DNA from: a cyanobacterium endosymbiont of Rhopalodia gibba | GTDB lineage: Bacteria > Cyanobacteriota > Cyanobacteriia > Cyanobacteriales > Microcystaceae | Assembly (NCBI GenBank): GCA_045159875.1 | Contig: CP067995.1 | Span: 2,560,001-2,624,000 of the forward strand | Length of the DNA stretch: 64,000 nt | Direction: 5' to 3' | In this document: positions 14,261 through 60,079 of the stretch, in pieces | Position numbering within the stretch: the first letter of the stretch is position 1 | Layout of the letters: every line of letters begins with the position of its first letter | Translations under genes and position numbers: made by a program | Notes under the pieces: generated by a model | Database searches by the model: none | Told to the model about the DNA's origin: nothing | Seen by the model: only the letters and a program-made list of their open reading frames with translations

Positions 14261-14306
14261 TACAGATTGTAATAGATGAGCTACAGCTCATCTATTACAA
14301 TCTGTA
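14261..14306. repeat. Perfect inverted repeat, 22-bp arms, 2-nt loop, ending 32 nt upstream of crtQ
   Basis: tacagattgtaatagatgagct-ac-agctcatctattacaatctgta. Confidence 0.95.
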
Positions 14307-23592: not shown

Positions 23593-24315
23593 ATGATAAC
23601 TAATCCTCCCTCATTTCCTATTCTCAATGTTTTCGTACATCTTCTTGATGATTATTCTTATTGGCTACTTCAATGCCTCAATCATCATAAAGGAGTTCAT
23701 GTTGTAACTCTGAACGCAGAGATGGCTATGTTAGCCGAAAAAGATTCCTCGGTGACAGAAGTCATTCGTGAAGCTGATTTAGTGATTCCTGATGGAGCTG
23801 GTATCGTCCTGTATCTGCGGCTGCGCCAACAAAAACAGCAACGATGTCCAGGGATTGAACTGGCACAATCGTTGATTCAAGAATTGGGGTCCCAAGAAAA
23901 TTCCCCTTTAATTGTTTTTTATGGGGGAAAACCTGGAGTTAGCCATGTAGCGGCAGACCAATGGCGTAAGAAATTTCCAGGCATTTCTATTCTTTCATCC
24001 CATGGCTATTTATCCTCAGAAGAAGAAGAGCTATGGCGACAAACTCTATTAGACAAACAACCACAATTAATTCTTGTAGGGTTGGGGGTTCCTCGTCAGG
24101 AATTTTGGATTAGGCAACACCGTTATTTATGTCCCCAAGGGATTTGGATTGGAGTTGGCGGAAGCTTTGATATTTGGTCTGGGACTAAAGAGAGGGCTCC
24201 TCGGTGGTTACGAGACAACAATTTAGAGTGGCTCTATCGTTTATGTCAAGAACCCTGGCGTTGGCAGCGAATGTTAGCTCTACCTAGGTTTTTTTTACGA
24301 TCACTTATCCATTAA
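23593..24315 (+). CDS. WecB/TagA/CpsF family glycosyltransferase
   Basis: VVTLNAE, DLVIPDGAG, LVGLGVPRQE, GVGGSFD, RAP..LEWLYRL..EP.RW.R. Confidence 0.95.
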   Translation: MITNPPSFPILNVFVHLLDDYSYWLLQCLNHHKGVHVVTLNAEMAMLAEKDSSVTEVIREADLVIPDGAGIVLYLRLRQQKQQRCPGIELAQSLIQELGSQENSPLIVFYGGKPGVSHVAADQWRKKFPGISILSSHGYLSSEEEELWRQTLLDKQPQLILVGLGVPRQEFWIRQHRYLCPQGIWIGVGGSFDIWSGTKERAPRWLRDNNLEWLYRLCQEPWRWQRMLALPRFFLRSLIH

Positions 24316-24559
24316 GTCAAGATTGCCGAGCGATTACTTGACAGCACTTTAATCCCGAGATAATAGCGAGGAGTATAGTTGGATTGATCGTCTATACAAT
24401 TATTTCTTCAGGTCGAGACTTTAATTTGTCTGCTGTTGCTGAAAAAATTAAGACGGAAACTCAACTTAAAATATTGAACTATTTCAATAAAAATATTCGA
24501 TAATAGTTATTACATAATGATTTTCAAGTAAATATAGACTTTCGATAAACTGGTTCTTG

Positions 24560-25123
24560 AGAGAAGTTATAGTATCTTTGTCCCAAACTCCAAAAGTGGA
24601 GAATGGATAGTTAAGCGATTTCTCGTGCTCACTAAAACAACTTTACAGGGAAAGTTTTGACAACTTTTGAGTTAACTTCATTAACGGAAGCTAAAGAACT
24701 TACTATCTAGAATAGGCTCACAGCGATCTCCGATTAAAGCCGTTACCCTCAATTGAACTTAGAAGTAATCTTTGTAAAATTGCTGTAGAACTGGTGGCCA
24801 ATAATCGCCGCAAACTGAGTAAAATATCGTAACACATAATTCATGCAAGTTGTTTTCCACCCTCTAAATCTCCAATTTTCTGGATTACAGTTGTCTATTT
24901 TTGATATATGCTTTTAGCCTTTGGGAGGATTTTGTCCCCGGCAACAGTCAGTTTGACTCTCGTACTGCTATAAAAAAAGCACAAATTCGGTCCATAAAAG
25001 CCGTTTTATGGACCGAATTTGCCGACTAATAGTAAGCTGTGTCAACCAACATCGTCGTGCTGCTTACCCAAAATTTCTTATTTTAGCGATCATTAAAAAT
25101 ATTTACAATTATTCAATTCGCAT
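24560..25123 (-). pseudogene. ntcB: LysR-type regulator NtcB relic with a large internal deletion
   Basis: From ATG 25123: MRIE*L*IFLMIAKIRNFG*AARRCWLTQLTISRQIRSI, then RVKLTVAGDKILPKAK, IGDLEGGKQ, PVLQQFYKDY..VQLRVTAL, and C-terminal KVVLVSTRNRLTI..HFWSL; these match NtcB motifs. Confidence 0.82.
24982..25021. repeat. Perfect inverted repeat, 18-bp arms, 4-nt loop, inside the ntcB pseudogene
   Basis: caaattcggtccataaaa-gccg-ttttatggaccgaatttg. Confidence 0.95.
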
Positions 25124-25702
25124 GGGGAAAATTTAGATTATGGATTATGCGTCTTAGGATATATTGAGCAATAAGAGACTCACTTTCTAAGTTTATTAGA
25201 GATTGATACTTTATCATAGTTGATTTCTTTAAAAAAGATAAAAATTCCTAGTTAACTTGATATTTTAAATTTTTTATCCGAAAAACACTTTTCAATTTTC
25301 TCATTTTTTTATCTTTTAATCACTGGTACTGAGCAATGAAAATAGTGAACTACATAATTACTAAAACTTCCTACAAATATTTTACTAATACCTTTAATTC
25401 CTAGTTTTTTAATTAGAATCGAATCTACATCTCCACTATTGGCTAACACTCTAACCCAACAGCCATATTTTCCGATTCTCTAGTACCGTTTGCTAGAGTA
25501 GAAAACTCAGCTAATTCTTGATTAGAAAGACTGACGTAGAGACTTAAGGTTTAACTTGTCAGCAGTAAGCGATAAAACAACATTAATACGGACACATCTT
25601 AGCAATATATAAAGGTTTTTTAAAAACTAGTCTCCCTAAAATATCTTTATCCATTGCAACTAATTTTTTTTTATAGGACATAACAATTCTCCTTTTGATA
25701 AC

Positions 25703-26869
25703 TTAAAGACTGCTGACAAATTGAGATAATCTGTCGATCCCTTTTTCGATAGAAGTTAAATCGGTAGCATATGATAAACGAATACAATTATCTGCTCCGA
25801 ATACTGTCCCTGGAACAGCTGTGACCTTTTGAGAGTCTAAGAGTGCGTCACAAAAATCGAGAGAACTAATTTTGGTTTGACTAATATCTGCAAAAACATA
25901 AAAAGCACCCATGGGGGTCGGACAACTTAGGTGAGGAATTGTCATAATTCCGTCCAAAATAACTTGACGGCGTTTAGTAAAGGCTTGTAGCATTTGATAG
26001 ACGGAGTCTTGAGATTCTTCTAAAGCGGCAATTGCTCCATATTGGGCAAAAGTACACACGTTAGAGGTACTATGACTTTGAATGATATTAGTAGCTTCAA
26101 TTAATTCTATAGGCGCAGCCAAATATCCTACACGCCACCCTGTCATTGAGTAGCTTTTAGCAAAGCCATTACTAATAATTGTACGATTAAAAATCTCAGA
26201 ACTCACTGCTCCAATGCTGAGATGTTCTGCCCCGTCATAGAGAATCTTTTCATAAATTTCGTCGGCAACAACCCACAAATTGTTCTCCACAATGACCTCA
26301 GCTAACGCTTTAATTTCTGTGGCAGAATAAACAGTTCCAGTTGGATTCGAGGGAGAATTTAGAACAAATAATTTTGTTTTAGGGGTAATCGCTTGACGCA
26401 GTTGATCTGAAGTGATTTTATAGCTTGTTTCTGTCGTTGTTTGCACAATCACCGGTGTTCCTGTTGCTAATTTAACCATTTCTGGATAACTTAACCAATA
26501 TGGAGCCGGGATAATTACTTCATCCCCAGGATCAATCAACGCTAACATCAAGTTAAATAAAGACTGTTTACCCCCATTGGTCACAATTATATTGTCTGGG
26601 GTATAGTTTAAATTGTTATCGATGCGTAACTTTTTAGCGATCGCCGCTCTTAGCGTAGGTTCCCCTGCCACCGGGCCATACTTAGTTTTTCCTTGATTTA
26701 TAGCGAGTTTGGCCGCTTCTTTGATATGTTGTGGGGTATCAAAGTCAGGTTCCCCAGTACTAAAGCTACAGACATCAATACCTTGTGCTTTCATTGCCTT
26801 AGCTTTGGCGGCAATTGCAAGGGTAATTGATTGAGAAACCTTCCCCACTCGTGTTGCCAGTTTAATCAT
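25703..26869 (-). CDS. aspC: PLP-dependent aminotransferase class I (aspartate aminotransferase)
   Basis: [37 protein letters not shown]; start probably ATG at 26869. Confidence 0.92.
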
Positions 26870-27009
26870 TCGATTCGATATTCCCAGGCCAAACAAACAA
26901 TAATTCTATCCATGATATCGTCTCACTGGTGGTGTATCTCAGGTTTTAACGAATACTTTCTTAAGTCCATAGAAAAATGGCACAATGAACTCATCAGAAT
27001 TTATCTTAA

Positions 27010-38592: not shown

Positions 38593-40164
38593 TTATCTAG
38601 ACTTTTTAATTAATATGAAGTCTTGAGCATTTCCTAAGATTTTATACTTATTTAAGTTTAATTTTTCTAAAGTTAACGGATCTAAAAGAAAATAGAACGA
38701 GATAGCTGCTGATTTTTTTAACTCTTCTAGATTTTGAGCAATCACTTGACGATCACTATAAAAATCTAAACTAGTACGACTATAAGCATAAGAGGTATAA
38801 ACTACTGTATTAGGAGGAGTATTTTTCTGAATTAGAGCAGCTACAGGTTTAACAGGAAATGATTCATTCAGTTCCCAAATCCATAAATCAGATATTACAA
38901 ACATGCCCAAACTCAAATATAATCCAACAAAAAGAGTGAAGATAAAGTTACAATTATTTTGTATAAAATTAACATAAGATAAAGCGAATGTAATTCCTAT
39001 TAAAATTGATAATGTGAGAAGTTGAAAATTATTAGTTTTTATACTGAAATAAACTCCCCCTAGTGAAGCTAAACTACCAACAAGTAGTAAAATCCCTAGA
39101 ATCTTGGGATAAAACTGATCATTATTTTGTACAATTTCAGCCAAATATGCCCCCACAGCTAAAGAAAAGAAAGGATATACAGGCAGAATATACCATGGTA
39201 ACTTAGTCCTCATCAAGGAGATAATTCCTATAAACAGGATAAACCCAATTAAAACTAATTTAGCCCAACTTTGCTGATATTTTTTAATCGCTAAAATTAA
39301 TCCTCCAGGCAAAAATGAAAACCAAGGAAAACTATATTTTACTAATTCAATTATATAATACCATACTGAGCCTTTATTTCCTTCAACTGCGGTAGATAAT
39401 CGATCAAAGTTTTGTTGTAAAAAGTGAACTTCAATGAAATTTTCTCCATACTCGATAATTTGAAGTGGGTACCACAAAATTACTGGAAAAAATCCTAAGA
39501 TAAATCCACCCCAAAATACAGGATTTTTAAAAAATTTTGAAAATTTATTGAAAATACAAAATATTCCCAAAATTCCACCCAAAGCAATAACTAAAGTTCC
39601 TTTAGTAAAAGCGATTAATCCCAGTCCAATTCCTACTCCGATTATCCAGAAATGCTGATAAAAAGACTGAAATAAACAGAAAATAGAGAAAAGAAAAAAA
39701 GTATTAATTGGTCCATCTAACATTGCTAGTCGTCCATGACGTACCATAGGTAATAATGTTAAATATACCAGTGTGCTGAAAATAGCTGGAAGACGACTAG
39801 GAAAAATATTTCTTCCTATTAAATATAATAAAGGAACACCACAAGCTGTCAAAAAAGCACAGGGAAAACGGGTTGTAAATTCACTGACCCCTCCAATTAA
39901 ATAGCTCATATTTATTAACCAAATAATCAGAGGAGGTTTAAGTAAAAAAGGTTCATTGTGATAGGTCATATATAACCAGTTACCACTTTTGTAAATATCC
40001 TTAGCAACGGTTCCATAATATCCTTCATCCCAATCTCGTAATGGTAAATTACCCAGTCCGATTAAATATAAAATAAGAGCCGATAATAACAAAAATATAA
40101 ACCAGGATATATCCTGGTTTATATTTTGAAAAAATTGCTTAAAATTAGGTATTTTAGAGATCAT
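38593..40164 (-). CDS. ArnT/PMT-like glycosyltransferase (GT-C fold)
   Basis: LRDWDEGYY, KPPL, TRFP.A, RLAMLDG, TKLPWYILP; multiple TM helices. Confidence 0.9.
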   Translation of the reverse strand: MISKIPNFKQFFQNINQDISWFIFLLLSALILYLIGLGNLPLRDWDEGYYGTVAKDIYKSGNWLYMTYHNEPFLLKPPLIIWLINMSYLIGGVSEFTTRFPCAFLTACGVPLLYLIGRNIFPSRLPAIFSTLVYLTLLPMVRHGRLAMLDGPINTFFLFSIFCLFQSFYQHFWIIGVGIGLGLIAFTKGTLVIALGGILGIFCIFNKFSKFFKNPVFWGGFILGFFPVILWYPLQIIEYGENFIEVHFLQQNFDRLSTAVEGNKGSVWYYIIELVKYSFPWFSFLPGGLILAIKKYQQSWAKLVLIGFILFIGIISLMRTKLPWYILPVYPFFSLAVGAYLAEIVQNNDQFYPKILGILLLVGSLASLGGVYFSIKTNNFQLLTLSILIGITFALSYVNFIQNNCNFIFTLFVGLYLSLGMFVISDLWIWELNESFPVKPVAALIQKNTPPNTVVYTSYAYSRTSLDFYSDRQVIAQNLEELKKSAAISFYFLLDPLTLEKLNLNKYKILGNAQDFILIKKSR

Positions 40165-41850: not shown

Positions 41851-43197
41851 GTGGCTACTCGCGTTATTATAGTGCGTCATGGGCAAAGCAACTATAATGC
41901 TAAAAAGCTTATACAGGGTTGCAATAACGAATCAATTTTAACCGAAAAAGGTTGTCAAGATGCTCAAAAAGTCGGGAATAGCCTTAGTTTACTCCCCATT
42001 GATGCAATTTATTGCAGTCCCTTGCAACGGGCAAAAGCCACAGCTGAGATTATTCATAGTCGTTTGCCTTCTCGACCGAGTTTGTCTACTATCAATCAAT
42101 TGATGGACATAGACCTTCCTCTCTGGGAAAAGCAAAATAAACTTGAAGTAGCTAAAACGTTCAAGACTGAATATCAGTTTTGGAAAGAACGTCCCCACGA
42201 ATTTAAAATGGTTCTTTCTACATCTGAGGGAAAAAAAGAGCATTTTCCAGTTCTTGCTTTATATCAACAGGCTAAGAAATTTTGGCAAGAAATGATCCCT
42301 CAGCATCAGGGTAAAACTTTATTGATTGTTGCTCATAATGGTATCAATCGCTGTTTAATTATGAGTGCTATTGGAATGTCTCCAGAGCGTTATCACTCAA
42401 TTCAACAGTCTAATTGTTGCATCAATATCTTGAATTTTAGTGGTAATTGGGGGGAATCAGTGCAACTCGAATCCCTGAATCAAACTTCCCATTTAGGAAT
42501 TCCCATTCCTTCTACTCGTTCTGACAAGAATCATTTACGCTTTTTATTGGTTCGTCATGGAGAAACCGAATGGAATCGAGAATCGAGATTTCAAGGAGTT
42601 AAAGATATTTCACTCAACGAAAATGGTAAAAAACAAGCACAAAAAACTGCATATTTTCTCAAGGAAGTCTCCTTGAACTTTGCAGTTAGTAGTCCTATGT
42701 TACGTCCGAAAGAAACTGCTAAAATAATTCTTCAATACCATAAAGATGTTGAGTTAGAATTTAAACCCCAACTTCAAGAAATCTGTCATGGACTATGGGA
42801 AGGAAAATTAGAATCGGAAATTGAAGTAGATTTTCCAGGGTTATTAACTCAATGGAAAGACTCTCCAGAAACGGTACAAATGCCAGAGGGAGAAAATCTA
42901 CAACAAGTATGGGATCGAGCAATTATCTGTTGGAATCAAATGGTAGAGAATTACAGCAAATCTCCTGAATCTAAAACTGGTATTGTGGTTGCTCATGATG
43001 CTATTAATAAAGTAATTTTATGTTATTTGTTAGGGCTAAAAATCAGAGATTTCTGGAACATTAAACAAGGAAATGGTGGCGTTAGTGTGATTGACTATCC
43101 TCAAGGAATCAAGGGATTTCCTGTTTTACAAGCGATTAATTTAACCAGCCATTTAGGATCTGGAATTTTAGATCAAACAGTGGCTGGAGCATTGTAA
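41851..43197 (+). CDS. Tandem histidine phosphatase (PGAM-family) protein, probable phosphoserine phosphatase
   Basis: Two RHG motifs (VRHGQS, VRHGETEWN), SPL.RA..TA, VAHN/VAHD. Confidence 0.9.
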   Translation: MATRVIIVRHGQSNYNAKKLIQGCNNESILTEKGCQDAQKVGNSLSLLPIDAIYCSPLQRAKATAEIIHSRLPSRPSLSTINQLMDIDLPLWEKQNKLEVAKTFKTEYQFWKERPHEFKMVLSTSEGKKEHFPVLALYQQAKKFWQEMIPQHQGKTLLIVAHNGINRCLIMSAIGMSPERYHSIQQSNCCINILNFSGNWGESVQLESLNQTSHLGIPIPSTRSDKNHLRFLLVRHGETEWNRESRFQGVKDISLNENGKKQAQKTAYFLKEVSLNFAVSSPMLRPKETAKIILQYHKDVELEFKPQLQEICHGLWEGKLESEIEVDFPGLLTQWKDSPETVQMPEGENLQQVWDRAIICWNQMVENYSKSPESKTGIVVAHDAINKVILCYLLGLKIRDFWNIKQGNGGVSVIDYPQGIKGFPVLQAINLTSHLGSGILDQTVAGAL

Positions 43198-46989: not shown

Positions 46990-47390
46990 AAATTATGATA
47001 TATAAATAATAGCTAACCAGAGATTTGTGTCGTTTATCTAGATAAACGACACAAATCTCTTCTACAGCGTCGCGGAGTATTCTATATACTTATCAATCTA
47101 AGTGTGTTCTATCGAGAATTATTATGTGGACCGTAAGGAAACCTATTGTAATAAATTACAATTTCTTCTGCCCTACACCTGATTACTGACAATCTAATAG
47201 CACCAGCTCTACTTTTTAATATTTGAAAAACTTTTTAAGCTTTACTTAACTTAAATAAAGTCTTTTCATGCTTTAACTTAAAAAATATCCTTAAACGAGG
47301 AGATGATATTAGTTAATCAGAGTTCTTACAGCTGGCTATGCCAACATACTTTGGGATATGTTTGTGGAAATAACTTTTAAACGGAAAACA
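46990..47390 (-). repeat. Decayed dispersed repeat copy A (inverted paralog of about 60080-60470; probably an IS relic)
   Basis: Reverse complement aligns by eye with 60080-60470, e.g. attaaaaagtagagctggtgctattagattgtcag vs attaaaaaatagagctagtaccactatattgtcag, and gaatactccgcgacgctgtagaaga vs gaatgctccgcgaagctgtagaaga. Confidence 0.8.
47019..47060. repeat. Perfect 42-bp palindrome, no loop
   Basis: agagatttgtgtcgtttatct|agataaacgacacaaatctct. Confidence 0.95.
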
Positions 47391-59049: not shown

Positions 59050-59960
59050 TAGATTTTGTAAACTAACACTAAAAATAGTCAATAAATCTCGTAGAAACTA
59101 ATCTCGCTGCAACCGTTGAATAAAAATGTAATTTTAAGCTACCGATTACAGTAGTTTTCTCAGAAAATACCACTCTATTTTTAGATCAACTATCTTAGCA
59201 AGAAGAAAACAATTGCCAGCCTTTCTAAAATTGAGGTTAAGACGATGCTAAAGAGTATAGTATCTAGGGTGTAAAAAATATTTTCTAAAATTAATAAAAT
59301 TTAGTTTATTGAAAGTAAAAAATATATCCAGGAAGAATTGTTTCATACTTTGAATACTTTACATGAAGGAGAAAAACGTCTGGTCTTAACTCCGGAGCGG
59401 CTCCTAAACGCATTCATCTTCTACCAAATAATATATCATTTTCCTATAAAATTAATTACAGATATTCAAATTACAGATATTCAAATTCCTAATCTGGAAA
59501 CTCACATAGCTATTCTACAAAAAAGCTCAATATGACAATGTATGTCTTCCTAGAAATGTAATTAGATATATTTCCATCAACTACATGTCTAAATTTTCGA
59601 GGGTACTTTAATTTAGGCGATCACCTATGTCTCTATTTCTGGACTATCGATAACAGTAGAAAATATTGCCCCTTGTTAAATCCTCCCATAGAAAAGGCTC
59701 TTGCTTTTCCAGAAATTATTCTGCGTACAGTAGCCGATAAACAGTATCAGTGGAAGTTTTAAAAGAAAGTTCTAGACTATGAAAAATAAGTCCAGCTCGA
59801 TAGCTAGAGATGTATTTAGTGCGTCAGTCAGCACATAGAGTTAAGTTTGCTCCAAATTGACAAAGAGATTATACAACGGTGTTATGTGATTGTGACATAA
59901 TTTCTAAATTATAGCCAAAAGACTGGGAACTTAGTCAAATCCTATCGGAGTTAAGTAATC
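59050..59960 (+). pseudogene. dnaA: Chromosomal replication initiator DnaA pseudogene (may begin near 58750)
   Basis: Fragments [32 protein letters not shown] (Walker B region), DIQIPNLETHIAILQK, YDNVCLPRNVIRYIS, EGTLI*AITYVSISGLSITVENIAP.LNPPIEK, AR*LEMYLVRQ..HIELSL and DYTTVLCDCDIISKL (domain IV, DHTTV). Confidence 0.92.
59454..59487 (+). repeat. 15-bp tandem duplication inside the dnaA relic
   Basis: aattacagatattca repeated twice plus aatt (ITDIQ ITDIQ). Confidence 0.9.
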
Positions 59961-60079
59961 GCATTAATATGGTTAGTTAGGTTCAATTCTGATTGTTTCT
60001 TTTTTAAATTCAATTTAGAGCCTGAGTGGTTGGACATAAGTAAACGGCACTATATTAATCTGTATTGTAGCTCTAAAAA

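Follow-up and report, generated by a model that had tools for sequence, protein, structure and literature searches.

A perfect hairpin in a dead LysR-type regulator gene, probably left by a short-range template switch in a reduced cyanobacterial endosymbiont genome

How does a perfect hairpin come to lie inside a gene that no longer codes? The window (the whole 64-kb stretch of DNA analysed here, from the reduced genome G000) raises this question at the relic of a LysR-type regulator gene. The origin of a hairpin can rarely be read as directly as it can here, where the reading frame of the dead gene marks the old arm, the relic in the reduced sister genome G006 and 30 intact genes represent the pre-event state, and strain contigs bracket the age. 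We hold with considerable confidence that the hairpin was left behind by a short-range template switch while DNA of the gene, by then already dead, was being synthesised. The mechanism is already known, and the locus is a clean new instance of it, which would serve as a natural example of one-step hairpin creation by template switching.

The hairpin and the relic that contains it

A repeat search of the window paired 24982-24999 with 25004-25021 as an inverted repeat: the arms are 18 nt long and complementary at 18 of 18 positions (100%), and the loop has 4 nt. Folded as single-stranded DNA the hairpin reached -20.4 kcal/mol (z = -7.9), a value equalled by none of 200 shuffles. The arm length and the two reading frames across the repeat, AARRCWLTQLTISRQIRSIKRLLWTEF in one frame of the minus-strand translation and FFYSSTRVKLTVAGDKILPKAK in another, are as the first-pass annotation had described them. 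The features of the locus are as follows:

24607..25123, minus strand: LysR-family relic (probable ntcB), with an ATG at 25123, a stop at codon 5 (25111-25109) and further stops and frameshifts; it can be followed from 25123 to at least ~24607
25004..25021, minus strand: template arm, ancestral in-register codons of the LysR (ntcB-like) relic
25000..25003, minus strand: loop of 4 nt, inverted relative to orthologs
24982..24999, minus strand: copied arm, the exact reverse complement of the template arm, lying over ~11-12 ancestral bases (x-L-G-x codons)
24972..24978, minus strand: run of 7 T, three bases past the hairpin, containing part of the extra length
25309..25681, minus strand: decayed universal-stress-protein gene upstream of the relic, with ORF fragments resembling the start and end of an intact gene

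At the DNA level the relic is 79.5% identical to the G006 relic, i.e. ~20% different, and G002 and G007, two free-living congeners, have intact genes of 318-324 aa to which it is ~65-67% identical. Relics of G000 and G006 (both TAA) and of the reduced genome G001 (TGA) have the stop at codon 5 in common; the death of the gene therefore predates both the divergence of these genomes and the hairpin. The intact counterpart of the stress-protein fragments is a 157-aa gene upstream of the G007 ortholog, and since this upstream gene has decayed as well, the whole block is junk DNA. An intact ortholog of the regulator was present in 49 of the 61 genomes of the family; the genomes without a match in this search include all five reduced ones of the genus and all three of genus g13.

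Orthologs of the relic carry PF00126 and PF03466, the LysR helix-turn-helix and substrate-binding domains. NCBIfam gave no match above cut-off, just sub-threshold LysR relatives, and the names that the sources attach to the homologs or their cluster are 'LysR family' and, once, 'CmpR', with no NtcB among them. A glycosyl-transferase-family-3 gene lies directly downstream of the ortholog in 14 of 30 loci. By analogy this neighbour would fit the ntcB-cnaT arrangement, which Frias and co-workers reportedly described in Anabaena in 2003. The available text of PMC9430850 states that cnaT regulates the nirA operon. The name ntcB is plausible for the relic, and probably the right one.

The arm sequence is unique in the 3,064,642-base genome; a search that allowed up to 2 mismatches returned both arms, one lone site with 2 mismatches, and nothing more. 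The hairpin is unchanged in contig X6 from another study, which is 2.9% divergent (19 differences in 649 nt, no gaps), and is found with one loop change and one arm change in contig X7, likewise from another study and 3.7% divergent (7 differences in 189 nt, no gaps); the depth is 2-3 in each. Because it is present in both of these contigs, the hairpin is not an assembly artefact of this record. Contigs of X5 end at 24740 and 25075, so that the hairpin falls outside their cover. The RNA-library contig X3 spans the hairpin stretch with 0 differences, a match in which DNA carry-over is possible and from which neither transcription nor a 3' end can be read.

Ancestral state of the site and origin of the second arm

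The site was aligned between the G000 relic, the G006 relic and five intact genes, and the parsimony ancestor of G000 and G006 was reconstructed. The template arm (25021-25004) reads Q I R S I K in the same register as Q I Q A/S L E in the orthologs and matches the ancestor in all but 2 of its 18 bases, in good agreement with the first-pass annotation, which had taken one arm for in-register NtcB coding sequence. That annotation had further proposed that the other arm overwrote its neighbour, and this also stands: the second arm sits at the x-x-L-G-x codons, where G006 and all aligned intact genes have ~11 bases encoding x-L-G-x, and the loop and the Arg-equivalent codon are 37 nt apart in G000, versus 30 nt in the intact orthologs and in G006 (+7 nt).

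A short ancestral quasi-palindrome, anticipated at this position on first inspection, was indeed recovered. In the ancestor a 4-nt spacer is flanked by a perfect inverted repeat of 7 bp (the seed), and the G006 relic has the same 7-bp seed only, with the hairpin absent. The seed is built from Leu-Glu ... Leu-Gly codons, after a GAA-to-AAA change common to G000 and G006. The longest perfect stem at the site in intact orthologs is 3-6 bp (30/30; none exceeds 6 bp), and accordingly 0 of 30 intact genes have the 18-bp repeat, while one of its arms does align to them.

The loop gives a further indication of how the second arm arose. Compared with the G006 loop along the gene, it has 4 mismatches in 4 positions, reduced to 1 in 4 when it is reverse-complemented; the loop variant of X7 is the reverse complement of the loop of the free-living congener G005. 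Deriving the G000 sequence by linear descent takes 14 edits, and template switching, the explanation favoured in the first-pass annotation, lowers this number to 4 with one switch and an inverted loop, or to 6 with the loop kept. Return points of the switch that need 4 or 5 edits score almost equally well, and the T-run requires one extra change of 1-3 nt. Of the +7 nt, +4 to +6 would stem from the switch and the rest from a change in the T-run at a later time, with an ambiguous split between the two. The inverted loop, like the genome-wide scale described below, is new beyond the first-pass annotation.

The age of the event is bracketed by the absence of the hairpin in G006 (~20% different) and its presence already in the contigs that are 2.9-3.7% divergent. 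A tree of four reduced genomes, built from the 2 of 21 window ORFs that had outgroup orthologs in the compared region, gave supports of 61 and 47, and its branching order is not settled. Because of this, and because G006 is the only sister that keeps the site, the event is dated no more closely than to after the split from G006. The reduced genome G003 is without this part of the relic, and the G001 relic has a 367-nt deletion with a boundary within ~30 nt of the site. The upstream edge of this deletion (locus L004) lies at or near the seed, at a site orthologous to window ~24990-25033, and deletions, too, may be favoured at the seed.

We propose the following sequence of steps. The relic would have carried an inverted repeat of 5-7 bp (Leu-Glu(Lys) ... 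Leu-Gly codons) around a 4-nt spacer. The growing strand, having just copied the upstream repeat, would have paired with the downstream repeat of the opposite strand, and synthesis would then have reversed its course, copying the spacer and 18 nt of the upstream codons, before the strand rejoined its proper template a few bases on. The expected outcome is an upstream arm, an inverted loop and an exact reverse complement of the upstream arm, with 18 bases in place of ~12. To the observed identity of the template arm, ancestral seed, repeat-free orthologs, inverted loop and drop in edits, this scheme would add a replication fork as the setting, a single event and an exact return point.

The same product could have arisen away from a replication fork, if a double-strand break or gap was repaired by fold-back (snap-back) synthesis, with a resected 3' end folding on the short repeat, priming its own synthesis and being rejoined by microhomology. 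This route needs the same seed and produces the same arm polarity, and the sequence has no feature that separates a switch at the fork from fold-back synthesis in break repair. The edge of the G001 deletion within ~30 nt suggests that the site is possibly break-prone, and with dnaA decayed in this genome and not found in G006 or in the reduced genome G019 of another genus, replication may lean more on recombination. Plain self-priming, however, retains the loop, and the inverted loop fits better at this site (4 versus 6 edits; 1/4 versus 4/4 mismatches). That argument counts only if no later flip took place: the inverted loop could instead stem from a second, later flip, flips being common, and a fold-back copy followed by such a flip would yield an identical product. 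On balance we consider the fold-back route unlikely. An inserted mobile palindrome such as a REP, a MITE or a small dispersed repeat would be alike in size and shape, and small dispersed repeats occur in cyanobacteria. An insertion of this kind is nevertheless at odds with several findings: there is no second copy in the genome at up to 2 mismatches over both arms, one arm is orthologous in-register coding sequence and the loop position is orthologous too, the net gain is 7 nt and not 40, and the long palindromes listed in the genome all differ in sequence. With a unique sequence and one orthologous arm, we exclude a mobile element for practical purposes, as the first-pass annotation had done; its chance of being correct is negligible.

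Template switching might also have been a mere source of variation, with the hairpin kept or fixed as a transcription terminator or RNA 3'-end stabiliser acting between the aminotransferase gene (25703-26896, minus strand) and the convergent gene at 23593-24315 (plus strand). The hairpin is the sole terminator-like site in 24300-25750 (19 pairs and the tail GCTTTTTTTA on the minus strand; shuffle mean 0.5), the region is covered by an RNA-library contig, and genome-wide the hairpins within 100 nt of ORF ends are tilted towards the stop side (17% vs 12%) and away from the start side (3% vs 12%). Yet either flanking ORF is ~680 nt away, G-C accounts for just 6 of the 19 pairs, and the RNA-library contig shows no 3' end and may be DNA carry-over. 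T-runs follow 23.5% of hairpins genome-wide versus 21% of random non-coding positions, and the T7 tail is probably a coincidence because such runs are nearly as common at random positions. Per kb, hairpins are as frequent in divergent as in convergent gaps, and their mismatches have no strand-specific wobble preference (A.C 19, G.T 17). Rfam returned a single chance-level match on 24300-25750 (E = 0.54). Given the distance from genes and the genome-wide statistics, a selected terminator is very improbable, still more so than fold-back synthesis, and the hairpin left by the proposed template switch is probably without function.

Palindromes across the genome and its relatives

The chromosome contains 486 perfect hairpins with arms of at least 12 nt (loop 0-10 nt), 319 with arms of at least 15 nt and 206 with arms of at least 18 nt, the longest arm being 38 nt; the corresponding numbers in six shuffled or Markov copies of the chromosome were 7-18, 0-3 and 0, respectively. 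Outside ORFs of at least 100 aa, which make up 53% of the chromosome, lie 306 of the 319 hairpins with arms of at least 15 nt. Hairpins are distributed among convergent, divergent and tandem gaps in proportion to the available space, and the median hairpin lies 655 nt from a stop-side ORF end, versus 620 nt for random non-coding positions. Hairpins with arms of at least 18 nt were counted in the window and in 100-kb samples of related genomes:

Window (this genome, reduced; 64 kb): 11
G006 (reduced, same genus; 100-kb sample): 10
G001 (reduced, same genus; 100-kb sample): 6
G003 (reduced, same genus; 100-kb sample): 7
G004 (reduced, same genus; 100-kb sample): 11
G019 (reduced, 1.5 Mb, another genus; 100-kb sample): 5
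G007, G002 and G018 (free-living; 100-kb sample each): 0 in each

Besides the relic hairpin, those in the window lie at 2185, 2289, 2407, 14261, 28284, 40092, 47019, 49914, 50288 and 52908, and three of them cluster within 260 nt (2185-2448). Compared with G002, G005 and G007, these other hairpins find a match solely at 40092 and at the edges of 14261 and 52908.

Arms overwritten from one another were seen at several of these sites. At window 28284 the stem of G006 is extended to 29 nt, 21 flank bases having been replaced by the reverse complement of the other flank, and at 47019 the left arm of G000 has been overwritten from the conserved right arm. The hairpin at 40092-40127, common to all four reduced genomes compared, has taken the place of the 5' end, with the first codons, of a membrane-protein gene on the minus strand, a gene conserved in free-living relatives. 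G000, G006 and G001 no longer have its original start codon, and one arm aligns to the free-living coding sequence. This hairpin is perfect in both G000 and G006, with two paired differences between them.

Loops are flipped as well. A clearly inverted loop in an ortholog was found for 8 of 25 hairpins compared, the relic hairpin included. The hairpin at 14261-14306, whose right arm is conserved and which lies just upstream of a gene start, has 22-nt arms identical to those at 42976-43021 of G001 and a 2-nt loop that is reverse-complemented (AC vs GT).

Among hairpins with arms of at least 18 nt, those with 0, 1, 2 and 3 mismatches number 205, 22, 11 and 1, respectively, and 47 of 5176 pairs are mismatched. 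Since simple birth and decay predicts roughly equal mismatch classes, repeated re-perfecting or fast turnover is inferred. A process still under way at the DNA level, of which the relic hairpin would be one product, has populated the non-coding DNA of this and related reduced genomes with unique perfect palindromes, and it appears to keep them perfect and to flip their loops.

Known systems, repair genes and a possible mutational regime

The Ripley-type model describes quasi-palindrome mutation, and hairpin-loop inversions occur in chloroplast spacers. In the available portions of the sources, published models predict a perfect stem from a single event, arm homogenisation and spacer inversion (PMC8794818, PMC8604942, PMC5453318, PMC5941160), and the products seen here match these predictions. 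The quasi-palindrome or four-point TSM model (Loytynoja and Goldman, PMC5453318; Monttinen and Loytynoja, PMC8794818), as far as those portions set it out, is alike in that a short imperfect repeat seeds the switch, an exact reverse-complement copy gives a perfect stem, and a whole cluster of substitutions and indels goes back to one event. The present case differs in lying in a dated pseudogene whose reading frame reveals the template arm, and in belonging to a genome in which such products are far commoner and longer (arms to 38 nt) than in three free-living relatives (100 kb each). According to the available text of Lavi et al. 2018 (PMC5941160), perfect short inverted repeats are over-represented and kept perfect across Proteobacteria species, which those authors credit to preferential correction by template switching; here, by comparison, 206 repeats with arms of at least 18 nt occur in 3 Mb, nearly all in junk DNA, and among the genomes sampled such repeats are confined to reduced endosymbionts.

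Homogenisation of inverted-repeat arms with spacer inversion in yeast, as given in the accessible part of PMC8604942, is similar in that loops flip while stems stay intact (8/25 here). The yeast and plastid cases concern eukaryotic nuclear or plastid DNA, whereas the genome studied here is that of a bacterial endosymbiont at an early, organelle-like stage. REP/BIME sequences, MITEs and Rickettsia palindromic elements likewise form hairpins, from sequences 30-80 nt long that lie in non-coding DNA and even inside genes; they are multi-copy and spread by transposition, whereas each palindrome here is unique and locally built. A literature search found no account of such palindromes or hairpins in spheroid-body, diazoplast or UCYN-A genomes, and the recent genome papers on these symbionts make no mention of palindromes or hairpins.

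Genes for repair and replication were compared among the same genomes. Intact copies of sbcD, recJ, recQ and mutS are present in all eight genomes of the genus. xseA was found in G002 only, and its loss is not symbiont-specific because the free-living G007 and G005 also lack it. The three free-living members of the genus (G007, G002 and G005) each have two RecQ-like helicase paralogs, in G007 at C1:4599153-4600235 and C1:1605663-1606727, that were not found in its five reduced genomes. A decayed dnaA relic lies at window 59293-59965 (plus strand), where matches to the DnaA model contain 6 and 5 internal stop codons; the free-living G007 and G002 have an intact dnaA, and the search found no copy in G006 or G019. 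The loss of dnaA in these symbionts is noted in the available part of a 2026 preprint. Set against the palindrome excess, the losses of the RecQ-like paralogs and of dnaA are correlations only, and the repair-gene set examined leaves the palindrome activity unexplained.

It is conceivable, and we put it forward tentatively, that reduced N2-fixing cyanobacterial endosymbionts run a distinctive and very active template-switching regime that keeps creating, lengthening and re-perfecting hairpins and flipping their loops in all parts of the non-coding DNA. Such a regime would span at least two lineages, namely the five reduced genomes of this genus and the 1.5-Mb genome of another genus. If this is true, the regime would amount to a mutational signature of genome decay at an early, organelle-like stage, perhaps connected with the disappearance of DnaA-dependent replication or of the RecQ-like helicase paralogs, and it would provide a steady supply of new stem-loops from which terminators or RNA-stability elements could be drawn, as happens in plastids. 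In alignments of these genomes, clusters of apparent 'substitutions' may be single events. The palindrome excess bears on the source of new RNA stem-loops, and the genome-wide pattern, with some 200 long, perfect palindromes of unique sequence per genome in several endosymbionts and none in the free-living samples, bears on the evolution of non-coding DNA in organellogenesis, is possibly weightier than the locus itself and merits a study of its own. The small second contig of G000 (C2; 6464 bases, 26% GC), which may be a plasmid or an assembly leftover, also carries a perfect palindrome, with 35-nt arms, at 2143-2218.
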